From the NCBI RefSeq assembly GCF_044324875.1, contig NZ_CP172185.1: a stretch of 64,000 bases of DNA. The stretch is one strand, 5' to 3'. Shown piece by piece: positions 3,412 through 59,926 of the stretch. Below the pieces are notes generated by a model that was not told where the DNA came from, searched no databases, and saw nothing but the letters and a program-made list of their open reading frames with translations. Position 1 is the stretch's first letter, and each line of letters begins with the position of its first letter. The stretch comes from Escherichia coli. GTDB taxonomy: Bacteria > Pseudomonadota > Gammaproteobacteria > Enterobacterales > Enterobacteriaceae. A program made the position numbers and the translations under genes.

Positions 3412-4646
3412 TTGCCAAAGGTCACCGCCATGGACGAAAGGTCCCTCTACGCTCATATTATCAACATGACCGCTCCATGGCAGGTTAAATATCTTTCTCT
3501 CGATGAAAACGCCGGTTCTGTTACCGTCACAGTTGGAATCGCTAAAAATGCCCGGTTAGCCTGTCCGACCTGCGGTAAATCCTGTTCTGTTCACGATCAC
3601 CGTCATCGTAAATGGCGTCATCTTGATATCTGCCAGTTCACCACTATTGTCGAAGCCGATGTGCCCCGCATTATGTGCCCGGAGCATGGCTGCCAGACGT
3701 TGCTAGTTCCCTGGGCTGGCCCCGGAAGGCGGTATACGCTGCTGTTCGACTCGTTCTCTCATGGCTGAAAATCAGCACTGTTGATGCTGTAAGGAAACAA
3801 CTTAAGCTCAGCTGGAATGCGGTTGACGGCATTATGACCCGGGCAGTTAAGCGAGGTCTTGCCCGGATAAAAAAGCCATTATCCGCCCGTCATATGAATG
3901 TGGATGAGGTCGCCTTTAAAAAAGGACATTGTTATATAACTGTGATCTCCGATCGCGATGGTCGTGCACTGGCCTTAACGGACGATCGTGGCACAGAGAG
4001 CCTCGCCGGCTATCTTCGCACGCTTACTGACGGGCAGTTGCTGGCTATCAAAACGCTCTCAATGGACATGAATGCAGGCTGTATAAGAGCAGCGCGTATC
4101 CACTTACCCTGTGCGGTTGAGAAAATCGCCTTCGACCGCTTCCATGTAGCAAAGCAACTTGGTGAAGTGGTTGATAAAATCCGTCAGGATGAACATCCAC
4201 ACCTCCCTGTTGAAAGTCGGCGTCAGGCAAAGGGGACCCGCTTCCTGTGGCAGTACAACGATAAATGGATGACCGAATCCAGGCAGGAAAAGCTGATATG
4301 GCTGCGTGCACAGATGAAGCTGACAAGCCTGTGCTGGGCGCTGAAAGAGCTGGCAAAGAATATCTGGAACAGGCCATGAAGTGAGGAAAGACGTAATGAG
4401 TGGGAGAGATTGCTGGCTCTGGCGGCCAACAGTGACATTACTATGATGAAAAACGCCACGAAAACGATAGGAAAAAGGCTGTATGGGATCCTGAATGCCA
4501 TGCGACACCGTGTCTCAAACGGAAACGCGGAGGCGCTTAACAGTAAGCTCAGGCTGCTGAGGATAAAAGCTAGGGGATACCGCAATCGGGAACGCTTTAA
4601 GCTGGGCGTGATGTTCCACTACGGGAAACTGAATATGGCGTTTTGA
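3412..4646 (+). pseudogene. ISL3-family transposase, split into three frames
   Basis: ORFs 3412..3768, 3675..4379, 4410..4646 together give N-terminal zinc finger (CPTCGK...CPEHGC), DDE core (MNVDEVAFKKGHCYITVISD...DRFHVAKQL) and typical C-terminus. Confidence 0.8.
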
Positions 4647-4710: not shown

Positions 4711-6912
4711 TCAGAATAATACTGAGTAACTCAGACCAAAGGTGCGGCCCCTGCCTTTGTAGCCGTACAGTGAAGCAGGGCCGTAACCCGGGCTGTAGTA
4801 CAGTGGCGCACGCTGCCCCCAGACAGTGGTGTAGTCACGGTCGAAGAGGTTTTCAATGCTGAAGCTGAGTGTACCCACCGGAAGCTGATAACTGCCAAGC
4901 AAATCGACGATGGTATAGCCATCGACCTTGTAGCCCTGCGCGTCGCTCACGTCAAAGGAGGTGGTGCTCTGCACTCGCAGACTCCACGGGTCCGGTGCCC
5001 AGCCAATGTAGGCTGTCGCTTTTGATGGGCTTGCTGTCTTCACATCGTATTTCTGCCAGGTACCGTTCACTTTCGACTCAGTTTTCAGCACGTTGAAGTT
5101 CACTCCGGTACTCCAGTCAGTATCAGGAATCAGGTAGTCCACCGCACCTTCCACGCCGTAAATACGGCGTTTGTCGTCCACCACACTGATGGTCAGATCT
5201 TTATTCGCCACCACGCTCTTATCAGAAATCGAATAGTAGGCCGCGATTTGGGTGCGCAGATTATTGCCAGTAAAGCGCCAGCCCAGCTCATAAGAATCGA
5301 CTTTCACGCCTTCCAGCTTGCTGTCGCTGACGTTCACACTCTTTGTTAGAGGAAGATGGCCGTTCACTGCAGCACCATAGATGCCGCGACCATAGTATTT
5401 ACCCGGGTCCGGCAGCTCCACGCCCTGGGAGAAGTTGAGCCATGCCTGCTGGCGTTCGGTGATATGCATCAGCAGACCAGCGTTGAACAGGAAGTTGTCG
5501 TAATCGACTGAGCCGCCAGGAATGGCGTCGGCGGATGTAGCCTTCCCGGCGGCAATCTGCCGTTGCTGCGCGTAGCCGATGAAATCATCAATCTTGTTTT
5601 CAGTGTACTGATAGCGTACGCCACCGTTGAGGGTAAAGAGATTATTGATGTCATAGCCTGATTGCAGGAAGACCGCCAGGTTGGTGATGTCATACGACGG
5701 ATAGCGCCCGGTGGTGTAAATCTTCTTGTTGTTCAGCCCTCCGGAAGCGCTTGCTTGAGCCAGGTCGAAGAACATCTGGTTGGAGGTAAAGCGCTCATGA
5801 TCAGCATCCAGCCCCCAGGTGATTTGCCAGCCGTCCATCGGTTTGCTGTTCAGAGTCAGTTTCATGCCGTACTGGTCGGTGTCCTGCTGTGACGAAGAGA
5901 AAGCCGTCACCTGTTTGTTCGCATTTACCGTCGGGAACGGGTAGAATCGCAACGACTCATCGCGGTAGTAAACCTGACCGACCAGCTCCTGTCCCAGGAA
6001 AGCGCTGTCAGAGTACTGCAGGCTGATCAAATGCCGCTCAGTGCCGGGAATACGGTCGGAATTCAGCCCGTTACTGACGAAGGGCGTGCTGGTCCCTCTG
6101 ATGGCAGAGAAGCCTTTCCCGAGATTAAGCCCGTAATCGTCGTCGCCCTGGCTTTTATAGTACTGTGTGATCAACTGAAGCTGCCGGGATTCATCGATGT
6201 TCAACGTTCCAGTTCCCATGATGTCCAGCCGATCGGAGTACTGCAGGCCGGTCTGGGTGTTATCAAGCAGGGTGGCATCGCCGTTACCGTCAAACCAGCC
6301 GCCAAATTTCTGATATGCCACGGAAAGACGTCCGGAGATATGCTCATTTCCGCCGGAGACAGCTCCGGCAATGCGTTCATCGTGATCTTTACTGCTGCTA
6401 AAGCCACTTTTGGTGCCAGCCTCAAACTCCTTCATGGTTTCCGGCTGGCCTTTTTTGCTCACGATGTTGATCAGGCCACCGGTACTGCCGCCGCCATACA
6501 GGGACGTCGCACCGGAGATCACTTCAATATGGTCGATATTAAAAGGATCTATAGAGTCCAGTTGTCGGCTGTCGGTACGTGAAGAGTTGAGACGCACGCC
6601 GTCAACCAGCACGACCAGCGGGCGGCCACGCACATTCATACCGTAGTTGGTGCGGCTCCGGCTGCTGACGTCAAGGCCAGGGATCAGCTGAGCCAGTGCG
6701 TCCTTAAGCTCTTTGCCGCCCTGAATCTGCTGTTCCAGTTCGGCGTTTTCGATAACCCAGGTGGTTTGTGCCATCTCCGCTACGGTGCGATTGCTGCGGT
6801 TGGCAGACACCACGAACGTTTCATCATCGGTTTGTTGAGCGACTGCTGGCGCCATCATGGTAAGAAGCAGTGGGTTGAGAGCCCAAAGCGTATACTTTTT
6901 GCTTATCATCAT
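4711..6912 (-). CDS. iutA: IutA, TonB-dependent ferric aerobactin receptor
   Basis: 733 aa with signal peptide, TonB box region, plug and beta-barrel ending in aromatic residue (…SYSVLF); sits immediately downstream of iucD. Confidence 0.93.
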   Translation of the reverse strand: MMISKKYTLWALNPLLLTMMAPAVAQQTDDETFVVSANRSNRTVAEMAQTTWVIENAELEQQIQGGKELKDALAQLIPGLDVSSRSRTNYGMNVRGRPLVVLVDGVRLNSSRTDSRQLDSIDPFNIDHIEVISGATSLYGGGSTGGLINIVSKKGQPETMKEFEAGTKSGFSSSKDHDERIAGAVSGGNEHISGRLSVAYQKFGGWFDGNGDATLLDNTQTGLQYSDRLDIMGTGTLNIDESRQLQLITQYYKSQGDDDYGLNLGKGFSAIRGTSTPFVSNGLNSDRIPGTERHLISLQYSDSAFLGQELVGQVYYRDESLRFYPFPTVNANKQVTAFSSSQQDTDQYGMKLTLNSKPMDGWQITWGLDADHERFTSNQMFFDLAQASASGGLNNKKIYTTGRYPSYDITNLAVFLQSGYDINNLFTLNGGVRYQYTENKIDDFIGYAQQRQIAAGKATSADAIPGGSVDYDNFLFNAGLLMHITERQQAWLNFSQGVELPDPGKYYGRGIYGAAVNGHLPLTKSVNVSDSKLEGVKVDSYELGWRFTGNNLRTQIAAYYSISDKSVVANKDLTISVVDDKRRIYGVEGAVDYLIPDTDWSTGVNFNVLKTESKVNGTWQKYDVKTASPSKATAYIGWAPDPWSLRVQSTTSFDVSDAQGYKVDGYTIVDLLGSYQLPVGTLSFSIENLFDRDYTTVWGQRAPLYYSPGYGPASLYGYKGRGRTFGLSYSVLF

Positions 6913-52977: not shown

Positions 52978-53054
52978 TGGACCGCCACCGGGGACTCGAA
53001 CCCCGCACAGTCAGCTTAGAAGGCTGATGCTCTCTCATGATGAGCTAGTGGCGG
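52978..53054 (-). tRNA. tRNA-Arg (anticodon UCU)
   Basis: Folds by eye: 7-bp acceptor (CCGCCAC/GTGGCGG), D arm, anticodon loop CTTCTAA, T arm CGGGG-TTCGAGT-CCCCG. Confidence 0.7.
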
Positions 53055-53055
53055 T

Positions 53056-53131
53056 TGGTGGCCCTTGCTGGATTTGAACCAGCGACCTGGCGATTATGAG
53101 TCGCTCGCTCTCACCACTGAGCTAAAGGGCC
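53056..53131 (-). tRNA. tRNA-Ile2 (anticodon CAU), ileX/ileZ-like
   Basis: GGCCCTTTAGCTCAGTGGTGAGAGCGAGCGACTCATAATCGCCAGGTCGCTGGTTCAAATCCAGCAAGGGCCACCA; very close to E. coli ileX. Confidence 0.8.
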
Positions 53132-54217: not shown

Positions 54218-54892
54218 TTACTGTGAAAATGCCGCCTTTTGTTTTGAACGTGTTCTCGTCACAAACAATAAAGCCTCACTATCCAGCCGGTGAAAAATGT
54301 GTTTCATTGCAATCCAGTGACCAGTAAATGTTTTGGACCAGTTTTTGGCTGTCACTCCCGCCAGTAATGCCAGATCCTGGTATTCGTAACCTTCCTTACC
54401 AAAAATTTCTGCTTTTACTGCCTGCGCCGCCAGCCAGATTAATTTTTTCAGGCGTTCCCGTGTTTTCTCTGCAATTTTCCTGTTGCCACAATGGGCCTTA
54501 AACTCTTCCCATGCCCAGTGGGTTATAGTGACCTGATACTCCCAGCAAATACTCCCGCTGTAACACCACAACAACCAGGCTTTCTGATGTTCTTCAATAG
54601 ACAGAACCGCCCGCCGCCATGATGATGTCGAAAACTCAACCGGGCTGACCAGGGCAATTGATGAGCCTTTCGCCAGCGATTGTTTTCCCGGGATTGGTGG
54701 ATTATCCCGCGTTATCATTTTTCCAGTCACTTCATCGCGGTACCGGATTTTTTTACGCCTGTAACGCCCTGTATCGAACATGGCATTCTCCTGCCAGGCT
54801 TCAAGCTGACCTTTTGTTGCCCCACTCAAATCAGCGGTGGCGATAATGAGCTGCTCACGCACAAACTGTAAATACTGGTTATTCATGCGCAC
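54218..54892 (-). CDS. Late-gene antiterminator Q-like protein (Qin QuuQ-type)
   Basis: 224 aa directly downstream of rusA and upstream of the terminator/lysis region; call is by position and size. Confidence 0.5.
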   Translation of the reverse strand: MRMNNQYLQFVREQLIIATADLSGATKGQLEAWQENAMFDTGRYRRKKIRYRDEVTGKMITRDNPPIPGKQSLAKGSSIALVSPVEFSTSSWRRAVLSIEEHQKAWLLWCYSGSICWEYQVTITHWAWEEFKAHCGNRKIAEKTRERLKKLIWLAAQAVKAEIFGKEGYEYQDLALLAGVTAKNWSKTFTGHWIAMKHIFHRLDSEALLFVTRTRSKQKAAFSQ

Positions 54893-55248
54893 TCCAGTTC
54901 TGTGATTTTTATCCCCAGCCGCCCACCAGGAACGGGCTGACCGCGCACAATATTAATTTCATCAAACTGCTCGTCGTCTATGAATAGTCCGGCATGCGTC
55001 AGTGCATCCAGTGGTGCCTTCAGGATATTGTCCAGGTCGCGGCGGCGCTTATCCGGTGGCTCTGCAATAATTTTTATTGCCAGCCTTCCGGACAGGTTTA
55101 ATTTCAACCGCTGTTGGCGAACAATTAACGCCACATCCCGGCGATAACGTTCACCGACTTTTGATACAAAATATGTGCTGCCACGACGTCGCCAGTAAGT
55201 ATTCACCGTTGGCGGGTAAGGCAAAACAAATTCTATGTGTTCAGTCAT
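54883..55248 (-). CDS. rusA: RusA Holliday-junction resolvase
   Basis: 121 aa; RRRDLDN motif and overall match to RusA. Confidence 0.85.
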   Translation of the reverse strand: MTEHIEFVLPYPPTVNTYWRRRGSTYFVSKVGERYRRDVALIVRQQRLKLNLSGRLAIKIIAEPPDKRRRDLDNILKAPLDALTHAGLFIDDEQFDEINIVRGQPVPGGRLGIKITELECA

Positions 55249-56397
55249 TTATGCATTCCACTTCAGGACGCCCGAATTTTTCGCGTGCATTAAAAAACAA
55301 ATCAACAACAACAGCTGGCTGCCGTGTTTTTCTTCAAATTCTTTTACCCCGGCATGCAGTTCGTTGTGGCATTTACGACACAGCGGAATAACAAATAAAT
55401 CGTCAGCCTTTGTTCCCATCCCTCCCAGTCCATGACCAATGATGTGATGCGGATCATCTGCCTGATTGCCACACGTCATGCATTTCTGCGTTTTTACCCA
55501 GCGCGTGTATACGGGCATCTCTTCCCGTTGTGGTTTCTGGCGCCGGAGATACTGAGCCGGAGAATCGGGATCAACGGTAAGGGTGACCACCTTATTTTCC
55601 TGTGGTCGGTTCTGTTGCTGGTGGGTCGGCAGCACAAGATTTTTTGTGCGCTGTTTCAGTATGCTGGTGGCGGTCTTTTCTCCTGGTATGATGTCGCTTT
55701 CGCGGTATACAGAGCGTATTTTTTCCGCAGGTAATCCCATCGAACGACTCAATACTGTCTCGGGTAGTGCATCCGTCACCTGATTGCACACCGCCCACCA
55801 GCATAATTCAGCCAGCGATAATTCCCGCTCCTGCGTGCCGTTCATTGCATGGCGTATGACGTCAATCATCCATTCTGCCTGGTTTTGTTGAGCAAGTTGC
55901 TCAAGTGATTCGGATGTCTGGTCACGCAGCTGGTTGTCGCAGTGCCAGCACAACACCATCGCTCCGGTACCGTAACGATGTATGACGGTTTCACTGTGAT
56001 GATAGTCACCATGAGGCCACTGGCAGGATTTGACATGACGCAACAGCCAGTCAGACAGTGCACCAGCGCCGCCGGCAGCACGAATCACACGCTCATTGCT
56101 GAAAAATGGGAGTAATGATTTATCTTCCGCCAACGGCTGGCGAACGGCAGGAACGACTCCGGACGGCAGACCGCGCATGCTTTTCGGTTCAGGCTCCACC
56201 AGCACACGCCCCTGCATAAACAAAGGCATCGCATCAGGACCGGGTCTGAAAAGTACAATCCCCAGACGGTGAGCAATTTCAGGTGTCACTAATACCCTCA
56301 CGTTACCTCCAGATCCGTTGCTGGTACGTGCGGGATGGACGCGGTGGGCGTTCGGAATAAGGGAGCCTGACGGAGATGATCCAGTACAGGCGGTCAA
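55249..56397 (-). CDS. DUF968-type protein with C-terminal HNH-like zinc motif (YdfU-like); start uncertain
   Basis: C-terminal CxxC...HHIIGHGLGGMGTKADDLFVIPLCRKCHNELH. Confidence 0.6.
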   Translation of the reverse strand: MTACTGSSPSGSLIPNAHRVHPARTSNGSGGNVRVLVTPEIAHRLGIVLFRPGPDAMPLFMQGRVLVEPEPKSMRGLPSGVVPAVRQPLAEDKSLLPFFSNERVIRAAGGAGALSDWLLRHVKSCQWPHGDYHHSETVIHRYGTGAMVLCWHCDNQLRDQTSESLEQLAQQNQAEWMIDVIRHAMNGTQERELSLAELCWWAVCNQVTDALPETVLSRSMGLPAEKIRSVYRESDIIPGEKTATSILKQRTKNLVLPTHQQQNRPQENKVVTLTVDPDSPAQYLRRQKPQREEMPVYTRWVKTQKCMTCGNQADDPHHIIGHGLGGMGTKADDLFVIPLCRKCHNELHAGVKEFEEKHGSQLLLLICFLMHAKNSGVLKWNA

Positions 56398-56635
56398 GAC
56401 TTAGGTCTTTCTGAAACTCGTAACCACGTCTGCGGTAGTTCTGAATTAGCCACTCTGCCTGTTCTTCAGTACATGGATCATGCCGGAACCAGTCAGATTT
56501 GAATGCGTGTGAATGCCGCCCGTGCCTGCTGGCAAAGACGGCGAGATTATCAGAATTGTGTAATCTGGTATCGTGCGCCATCCGTTGTCTCTGCTGGCGC
56601 AGCAGGTGCCAGTTGTTCAGGCTGGCTGGAGGCAA
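56303..56635 (-). CDS. Hypothetical nin-region protein
   Basis: 110 aa ORF; overlaps the extended start of the next gene so one of the two starts is wrong. Confidence 0.4.
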   Translation of the reverse strand: MPPASLNNWHLLRQQRQRMAHDTRLHNSDNLAVFASRHGRHSHAFKSDWFRHDPCTEEQAEWLIQNYRRRGYEFQKDLSLDRLYWIISVRLPYSERPPRPSRTYQQRIWR

Positions 56636-56716
56636 TATTGTCTCTGATTTCTGTTGTCGTCAACAGGCAGCGTGCTATCATCGAATGGTGTTCTATCCTA
56701 CTCCGTGAGGTTTACC

Positions 56717-56974
56717 ATGCGTACAACCCAACAATTCAGTATTACATTAACTAACGAGATGGCTGACATGGTGCGCTCCCGTGTGGCTTCCGGTGCCTAT
56801 GCTTCAGAAAGCGAGGTCATTCGTGAAGGGCTTCGCGCACTGAATGAGCGCGATAAAGCAATCGAAGCGTGGTTAACGCATTCAGTCGCCCCCTCTCTTG
56901 ATTCTATCCGCGAAAACCCAAACAACGGACGCTCCATTTCACAGGTTCGCGCCGCGATTAGATCCGGGAAGTAG
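56717..56974 (+). CDS. ParD-like type II antitoxin (ribbon-helix-helix)
   Basis: Start at internal Met (MRTTQQFSITLTNEMADMVRSRVASGAYASESEVIREGLRAL); 6 bp before the toxin gene. Confidence 0.7.
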   Translation: MRTTQQFSITLTNEMADMVRSRVASGAYASESEVIREGLRALNERDKAIEAWLTHSVAPSLDSIRENPNNGRSISQVRAAIRSGK

Positions 56975-56979
56975 TCTGC

Positions 56980-57279
56980 ATGACATTTGAAGTCATCATT
57001 ACCCCCGAGGCCGAACAGCAGATAATAAACCTGCACAGATATATAACGGAGAAAGCAGGAGGCGTCATTGCTGACAATTATGCCAATGCGCTTCTTGATT
57101 ATCTTGATGGGTTTTCTGCATTTCCGCATCGGGGCAATAAACGCGATGATATTCGCCAGGGGATGCGGGTAACTCATTTCCGCCACAGAACGATTATTGC
57201 TTTTGCCGTTGATGACAATAAAGTCTTTATCGCAGGTGTTTATCATGGCGGACAAAGTTATGAAACCGATTTCTTATAA
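56980..57279 (+). CDS. ParE/RelE-family toxin
   Basis: 99 aa basic protein immediately downstream of the antitoxin. Confidence 0.7.
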   Translation: MTFEVIITPEAEQQIINLHRYITEKAGGVIADNYANALLDYLDGFSAFPHRGNKRDDIRQGMRVTHFRHRTIIAFAVDDNKVFIAGVYHGGQSYETDFL

Positions 57280-57361
57280 ACTTGTCCCCACAGAATTCCG
57301 GTGTTAGAATAAAATGTCCGCCCGCTCTCTTGCTGGCGGATTCGTAAGCCATATAAATCAA

Positions 57362-57397
57362 AGCTCCCGACTCATGTTTGTGTCGGGAGCTTTTTTC
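57362..57397 (+). terminator. Intrinsic terminator after the toxin gene
   Basis: agctcccgac-loop-gtcgggagc followed by six T. Confidence 0.65.
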
Positions 57398-57483
57398 AAC
57401 GATTTATCCCCAACCGCAAATAGAATACATCACCAGCGCCTCCGCCATTGCAATTCCTGCCGTTGTGAATGCTTCAGGCCAGG

Positions 57484-59926
<2,443 letters not shown>

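Follow-up and report, generated by a model that had tools for sequence, protein, structure and literature searches.

Two adjacent genes in a 64,000-nucleotide stretch of Escherichia coli DNA (contig NZ_CP172185.1; hereafter the window), parD and parE, probably form a functional and self-contained type II ParD-ParE operon, which a lambda-like prophage carries as a moron in its nin region. Both open reading frames (ORFs) are intact and under purifying selection, their products fall into the ParD and ParE families, and the pair travels together with its promoter/leader region and its terminator through at least five genetic contexts. As far as the role of the pair is concerned, the analysis suggests that addiction of the cell to the prophage segment is the most likely one, and an additional exclusion of other phages by parDE is possible.

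From the ParDE systems of RK2, Caulobacter, Vibrio, Mesorhizobium and Pseudomonas, we infer that ParD binds ParE directly, thereby neutralising it, and acts as the repressor of its own promoter. With its N-terminal ribbon-helix-helix (RHH) half, a ParD dimer would bind an operator within the promoter/leader region and repress the operon, and its C-terminal half would wrap around ParE. If ParD were not replenished it would be degraded, and ParE would then poison DNA gyrase, leading to DNA damage, SOS induction and growth arrest. As parDE has its own promoter and an orientation contrary to that of the phage operons, its expression in the lysogen should not depend on the phage repressor. Cells losing or inactivating the prophage segment would be penalised, as with ParE_SO/CopA_SO in the prophage CP4So.

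The antitoxin and toxin proteins

A first-pass annotation of the window had proposed a ribbon-helix-helix antitoxin followed by a toxin of the ParE/RelE fold, and had suggested profile searches as a check. These searches were run, and both proteins match their ParD/ParE families. ParD scores 55.8 bits against TIGR02606 ('type II toxin-antitoxin system ParD family antitoxin'), above the curated cutoff of 46.2, and it also matches Pfam PF03693 ParD_antitoxin (independent E-value, i-E, 7.1e-8; residues 6-51) and phrog_6494 'antitoxin' (3.5e-55). The phmmer matches of ParD in the PDB are 3kxe_C, 7b22_A, 7ycv_A, 6x0a_a, 5ceg_A and 8c24_C, over residues 3-51, and the next ones are RHH domains of NikR; the closest solved relatives are Caulobacter ParD1, Vibrio ParD2, Mesorhizobium ParD3 and M. 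tuberculosis ParD1, all of them through the RHH half. In all the relatives of the pair the layout is the same, with the antitoxin gene first and the toxin gene directly behind it in the same orientation. Residues 1-48 of ParD are identical in the window and in one Salmonella copy (L009), whereas the C-terminal half and ParE diverge together, as expected from a fixed operator specificity and a co-evolving toxin-binding interface. The leader DNA is conserved along with the DNA-binding half of ParD.

ParE matches Pfam PF05016 ParE_toxin along the entire model (i-E 9.2e-10; model positions 1-89 of 89) and phrog_5232 'toxin' (2.2e-40). No NCBIfam family was found for this protein at E <= 0.01, although its RefSeq name is still 'RelE/ParE family toxin'; the missing model is a gap of the library and not evidence against membership. 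PF05016 also includes RelE-like RNases, and for this reason the ParE branch was tested against the RelE branch. A word-index search for homologues of ParE gave 31 close relatives and an exhaustive search gave 1,084; a profile was built from 82 homologues. This profile matched ten solved toxin chains, all of them of ParE type (6x0a at 3.7e-12, 8c24, 7ycs, 5ceg, 3kxe, 6xrw, 5cw7, 5czf, 7etr and 7r5a), including 7etr (9.8e-5), which was deposited as 'RelE/StbE family' and corresponds to ParE_SO. No named E. coli RelE, YoeB or HigB chain was matched in the PDB by the same profile at E <= 1.

The structure model points in the same direction. The AlphaFold2 model of ParE (predicted local distance difference test, pLDDT, 91.5) shows a strand at residues 4-7, helices at 9-26 and 28-46, and strands at 62-67, 71-78 and 81-89, that is, the expected strand, two-helix hairpin and three-stranded sheet. 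When this model was compared with solved structures by Foldseek, ranks 1-22 were all ParE-type proteins (template modelling, TM, scores of 0.75-0.84), while RelBE2 appeared at rank 23 (TM 0.64) and YoeB at rank 25 (TM 0.60). On the basis of the homologue profile and the structure model, the toxin is nearer to the ParE type than to the ribosome-dependent RNases RelE, YoeB and HigB. Family membership suggests that its toxicity would be due to the inhibition or poisoning of DNA gyrase.

Distribution, selection and role of the pair

Among 5,426 complete E. coli genomes, 331 (6%) carry the parDE pair, always in the chromosome and with the annotations 'ParD family antitoxin' and 'RelE/ParE family toxin'. 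With respect to the 92%-identical copy of the Stx2a (Shiga toxin 2a) phage ArgO145, the ratio of non-synonymous to synonymous divergence (dN/dS) is 0.16 for parD and 0.19 for parE. With respect to the copies from Yersinia, Salmonella and Enterobacter, the proportion of synonymous differences (pS) is 0.74-0.90, which means saturation, and that of non-synonymous differences (pN) is 0.13-0.24. These values indicate that both genes are under purifying selection and, judging from the profile matches, this selection and the conservation in the 331 E. coli genomes, the pair is far beyond what chance would produce.

Relatives of parDE were found in five contexts, each time oriented against their neighbours: i) the nin region in E. 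coli, ii) the early-left region of ArgO145, beside the anti-repressor gene, iii) the early-left region of Yersinia enterocolitica prophages, between the recombination genes and sieB/cI, iv) Salmonella prophages, between Q and a Bro-N gene, and v) an IS (insertion sequence)-rich island of Enterobacter ludwigii. Such a distribution indicates that the cassette is a mobile moron. The upstream region is also preserved: the extended -10 element TGCTA(T/A)nnT is conserved across the copies from E. coli, Yersinia, Salmonella and Enterobacter, and the leader block of 20 nucleotides that precedes the Shine-Dalgarno sequence is near-invariant in nine loci from four genera despite the saturated synonymous divergence in the genes.

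Some additional elements were observed in the Salmonella prophages. One of them (L011) contains a third ORF of 95 amino acids (6281-6568) with a weak HTH_3 match, which overlaps the end of parE and resembles three-component ParE systems, and a gene with a SocA_Panacea domain around 2.3 kb away; neither is in the window. The moron region of these prophages, from parDE to the lysis genes, contains matches at Rfam gathering level to sRNA-Xcc1 (80 bits) and STnc100 (77-78 bits), located at 4154-4237 and 1754-1951 in L009 and at 2947-3130 in L010, which shows a dense presence of non-coding RNA at the Salmonella moron sites.

The patchy distribution of the pair and its movement between unrelated contexts also fit a purely selfish passenger, without benefit to phage or host and kept since its deletion is lethal. 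An addictive module alone would account for the purifying selection seen on both genes. It seems unlikely that this is all that the pair does; nevertheless, a selfish passenger differs from a functional addiction operon only in the gain of the carrier, and sequence alone cannot separate them.

A search of the available literature found no experimental work on this prophage ParDE subfamily. Among better known systems, the best profile and fold matches are the chromosomal ParDE complexes of M. opportunistum (ParDE3; 5CEG, 6X0A), Caulobacter (ParDE1; 3KXE), M. tuberculosis (ParDE1; 8C24), V. cholerae (ParDE2; 7R5A, 7B22) and P. aeruginosa (ParDE1; 6XRW). The likeness includes the two-gene operon with the antitoxin first, the RHH N-terminal half and the two-helix hairpin and three-stranded sheet of ParE. 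However, toxin identity is 12-23%, and the pair of the window is a reverse-oriented moron of lambdoid prophages. The functional precedent for addiction is ParE_SO/CopA_SO from the Shewanella oneidensis prophage CP4So (7ETR), composed of a prophage-encoded ParE-family toxin and a DNA-binding antitoxin and reported to be essential for the maintenance of the excised prophage (PMC8706911). In this case the fold match is weaker (TM 0.61), the antitoxin is of CopA type instead of a TIGR02606 ParD, and both phage type and host are different.

Two other prophage systems are close in fold. PaaR2-PaaA2-ParE2, from E. coli O157:H7 prophages (5CW7, 5CZF), has its ParE in an E. coli lambdoid prophage as well (TM ~0.79), but it is a three-component system, its antitoxin being small and non-RHH and its regulator a separate protein, whereas the antitoxin of the window is an RHH ParD. 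Between parE and the terminator of the window there is no third ORF except chance ORFs, so the pair does not show the three-component PaaR-PaaA-ParE arrangement. PfiT/PfiA, from the Pseudomonas filamentous prophage Pf4 (9W3A), also contains a prophage toxin of the ParE/RelE superfamily, which is the third-ranked fold match (TM 0.82). It differs in belonging to a filamentous single-stranded DNA phage, in its identity (17%) and, according to its published description, in a distinct C-terminal region. PfiT/PfiA is reported to modulate phage production (PMC7264888, PMC13048266), and thus prophage ParE-like pairs can feed into the control of the phage life cycle.

Several points weigh against a functional addiction operon. 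Toxicity, neutralisation, DNA binding and the gyrase target are all inferred from the family, and the identity of ParE to the biochemically studied ParE proteins is only 12-23%. The fold neighbours PfiT and PrpT are known mainly for their effects on phage production and plasmid replication, so a gyrase target is not guaranteed. The lack of a matching toxin model in NCBIfam was counted here too, as was the promoter-like site of parDE, a 9/12 consensus match that alone is not above chance (3 sites versus 1.4 +/- 1.2 expected). Finally, an integrated prophage is rarely lost, which makes the benefit of addiction uncertain.

The genes that accompany the cassette in its relatives bring up another possible selected function, namely defence against phages, either through abortive infection or through superinfection exclusion. 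The incoming phage would cause the loss of ParD or the shut-off of host transcription, and the freed ParE would block DNA replication in both the invader and the cell. The moron neighbours in question are genes of exclusion or defence type (SieB in Yersinia; SocA_Panacea and Ail/Lom in Salmonella), but such neighbours are weak evidence, given that prophage morons all gather at the same few sites. The independent promoter and terminator of parDE would suit defence, and TA (toxin-antitoxin) systems have repeatedly been reported as defence systems; on the other hand, neither protein has a PADLOC-DB 2.0 family at E <= 0.01, and the search of the available literature found no ParDE pair shown to defend against phage. 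Taken together, defence as the selected function is somewhat doubtful, and addiction to the prophage segment is preferred.

Locus layout, terminator and neighbouring genes

The features of the locus are collected in Table 1. Every gene flanking parDE is on the minus strand, as the first-pass annotation had indicated when it described two plus-strand ORFs among minus-strand phage genes. Its placement of the pair in the nin region is also correct, since parDE lies between the replication genes and Q. The spacing between both genes, which had been given as 6 bp, is in fact of 5 nucleotides (TCTGC, 56975-56979), one base having been miscounted. A prophage of E. coli ECCNB12-2 carries a parDE copy 100% identical to that of the window, in the order terminase, lysis genes, tRNAs, Q, RusA, DUF968, hypothetical, [ParD ParE], hypotheticals, ead/Ea22, DUF1627, P, O-like and repressor region.

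Table 1. Position of the parDE genes, their predicted control elements and the neighbouring genes in the window
Feature	Position	Strand	Description
Antiterminator Q	54218-54892	minus	
rusA	54883-55248	minus	
DUF968/HNH protein	55249-56301	minus	
ORF of 92 amino acids	56303-56581	minus	
Leftward isrK-type promoter	56663 to 56634	minus	Predicted, promoter-like scan match; -35 TTGACG (56663-56658), 18-nucleotide spacer, -10 AATATT (56639-56634)
Palindrome CTGTTG-TCGT-CAACAG	56651-56666		Read from the sequence; overlaps the -35 elements of both divergent promoters
parDE promoter-like site	56654-56681	plus	Consensus scan; -35 TTGTCG, 16-nucleotide spacer, extended -10 TGcTATCAT
Conserved 5' leader block GAATGGTGTTCTATCCTACT	56683-56702	plus	Before the Shine-Dalgarno sequence; candidate ParD operator
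Shine-Dalgarno GAGG	56707-56710	plus	6 nucleotides ahead of the parD ATG
parD	56717-56974	plus	ATG 56717, TAG 56972-56974; 85 amino acids; ribbon-helix-helix antitoxin
parE	56980-57279	plus	ATG 56980, TAA 57277-57279; 99 amino acids; ParE-fold toxin
parE 3' untranslated region	57280-57359	plus	Promoter-like TTGTCC-17-TGtTAGAAT (57282-57310); hairpin 1 (57317-57340)
parDE intrinsic terminator	57360-57396	plus (maybe both)	12 + 2 bp G+C-rich stem (57360-57393), then U6
phrog_660 gene	ends 57484	minus	Other flank of parDE

The terminator attributed to the pair by the first-pass annotation was confirmed as a stem and U-run, although a simple consensus scan for terminators missed it. Together with the upstream hairpin, the plus-strand structure has a folding energy of -37.8 kcal/mol (z = -7.4), and none of 200 shuffled sequences was as good. 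The stem contains a compensatory double change, C:G to A:U, between the window and four relatives, with the pairing kept. On the minus strand the region folds with -24.5 kcal/mol (z = -6.6) and is followed by UUUGAUUUAUAU, so that the terminator may be bidirectional. It may also impede unmodified rightward phage transcription, like the terminators of the lambda nin region. Another structure, proposed as a terminator at 56627-56646 by the consensus scan, is a palindrome around the leftward -10 and was not regarded as such.

In the segment 57317-57396, around 80 nucleotides in total, a 5' hairpin is joined by an A/U-rich linker to the terminator, which is the architecture of Hfq-type small RNAs (sRNAs). 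From these sequence features, this two-hairpin RNA after parE may be an independent prophage sRNA. The hairpin arms and the -10 of the 3' element are kept in five E. coli/ArgO145 copies, and the element is confined to these copies; those from Salmonella, Yersinia and Enterobacter have their own short 3' ends with a hairpin. Rfam contains no family for the 3' element: a PyrG-leader assignment was rejected, as it reached 26.5 bits against a gathering score of 65 and was carried by the terminator hairpin. The identity with svsR, a published sRNA of lambdoid prophages, was rejected too, svsR being located at the 3' end of cI (co293-like). The apparent 'ParE' text matches in the svsR paper and in a paper on Hfq cross-linking and immunoprecipitation in enterohaemorrhagic E. 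coli (EHEC) are the words 'parental' and 'parent'.

Other observations concern the prophage around the pair. A complete copy of IS100 (1,954 bp, IS21 family, istA/istB on the plus strand) is inserted at 57913-59866 within the phrog_660 gene, to the right of parDE, with the target duplication GTAAC at 57908-57912 and 59867-59871; it is 99.9% identical to plasmid copies and absent from the otherwise near-identical ECCNB12-2 prophage. As IS100 separates the replication genes from nin/Q within the early-right operon, lytic growth may be crippled. Downstream of Q, two minus-strand tRNA genes are found at 52978-53131, which is the usual spot for tRNAs in Stx-type and related lambdoid phages. They correspond to tRNA-Arg (TCT) and to a tRNA with CAT anticodon, assigned to Met by ARAGORN and to Ile by RefSeq in the identical prophage. 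In the tail-fibre region (22002-25520), staggered self-similar BLAST matches with an offset of around 45 nucleotides over 22002-22591 suggest a tandem repeat in the tail-fibre gene; behind this repeat lies an IS66-family element (22849-25520) with 98.7% identity to the ECCNB12-2 copy.

The isrK promoter junction and its meaning

The cassette adjoins the -35 box of an isrK promoter in all nine of the aligned TA-bearing loci (9/9), and the two -35 elements overlap. This divergent promoter had been overlooked in the first-pass annotation. In ArgO145, Yersinia and the Salmonella locus L010, the sequence TTGACG-18-TATATT/TATAGT is found 6-7 nucleotides upstream of the 5' end of IsrK as defined by Rfam. 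Beside parDE in the same three cases, Rfam detects IsrK with 53-74 bits (gathering score 50) and C4 with 64-76 bits (gathering score 45), and then the anti-repressor gene follows. Both RNAs, IsrK (RF01394) and C4 (RF01695), are present in the loci L002, L003, L005 and L010. Some tRNA-like GGTTCGAATCC motifs upstream of the ArgO145 cassette belong to the C4/IsrK RNAs, no tRNA being found there by ARAGORN.

In the window, no IsrK or C4 reaches the Rfam gathering scores, nor does any match appear at E <= 10 in 56300-57900. What the window keeps of the isrK module is the promoter and a leader of around 20 nucleotides with the first hairpin (56608-56663), fused to the ORF of 92 amino acids, DUF968/HNH, rusA and Q, towards which the leftward promoter is aimed. 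Regarding this ORF, phrog_1212 (66 amino acids) matches only residues 27-92, and its 26 N-terminal residues may therefore be a fusion artefact or the result of a mis-called start. The isrK-orf45-anrP module of Gifsy-1, with the P1/P7-type C4 antisense RNA (RF01394, RF01695; PMC4825925), resembles the leftward promoter of the window in the -35 box, the spacing and the position of the -10, and in the relatives of parDE the full series of IsrK, C4 and anti-repressor follows the promoter; the difference lies in the genes placed behind the promoter of the window and in the lack of IsrK/C4 matches.

The palindrome that overlaps both -35 elements is, from its sequence and position, a candidate shared operator of both promoters. 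Its core GTCGTCAA (= TTGACGAC on the minus strand) is invariant in the nine aligned TA-bearing loci, and only the E. coli nin-context copies have perfect outer arms. A LexA box was also considered for this site, given that CTGT-N8-ACAG fits the E. coli nin-context copies, but this assignment is unproven: the spacer is G+C-rich, and the arms are lost in ArgO145, Salmonella and Yersinia.

This arrangement gives rise to the idea that ParD, alone or with ParE, also represses the back-to-back isrK-type promoter, the TA pair being then a part of the prophage induction circuitry. ParD would bind the shared palindrome, and its turnover would both free the gyrase poison, as an SOS trigger, and open the leftward promoter, which drives IsrK, C4 and the anti-repressor in the relatives and nin/Q genes in the window. 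Thus parDE would act beyond addiction as a stress-sensing trigger of induction. P22 offers an analogy, and only that, for a ParD placed beside the isrK promoter: in its immI region the ribbon-helix-helix repressor Mnt faces ant. The constant abutment of the cassette on the -35 box, the Rfam calls directly beside it and the overlap of both -35 elements with the palindrome are in favour of such coupling. So is VT2-Sakai, a phage without the TA pair, whose nin region carries an IsrK-C4-ant module having the same -35 arrangement; its homology to the TA-bearing loci ends immediately beyond the -35 box. The isrK promoter of Gifsy-1, from which the anti-repressor AnrP is expressed, is needed for spontaneous induction (PMC4825925).

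Nevertheless, the adjacency may be historical, derived from one insertion that spread later with its flank. Besides, conservation of the palindrome arms is limited to the E. coli nin-context copies, the better conserved TA-specific block is downstream of the parDE -10 and away from the leftward promoter, and the leftward -10 has decayed in the Salmonella loci L009 and L011 and in Enterobacter. For these reasons the coupling of ParD to isrK is quite unlikely, and addiction is kept as the preferred role.

With regard to the significance of these results, RefSeq already lists the same pair as ParD and RelE/ParE, and PHROGs as toxin/antitoxin, so its identification was known, and as one more TA pair the cassette adds little. 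Its description is of modest value to annotators: as the toxin has no NCBIfam model, phage annotations can list this ParD as an 'orphan antitoxin'. Related to this, 'orphan' ParD-family antitoxins have been reported in phi346 and phi349, phages from clinical EHEC (PMC12502783), and they could be this cassette with its ParE left unnamed; four phage records match the cassette, and phi346 and phi349 are not among them. The unusual feature of parDE is its constant juxtaposition with the isrK promoter which, together with the possible sRNA after parE, is the only item that deserves work at the bench. If it were true that ParD controls the isrK promoter, a widespread group of lambdoid prophages, those of Stx type among them, would have a TA-gated input into induction, and this would bear on the induction of Shiga-toxin phages.

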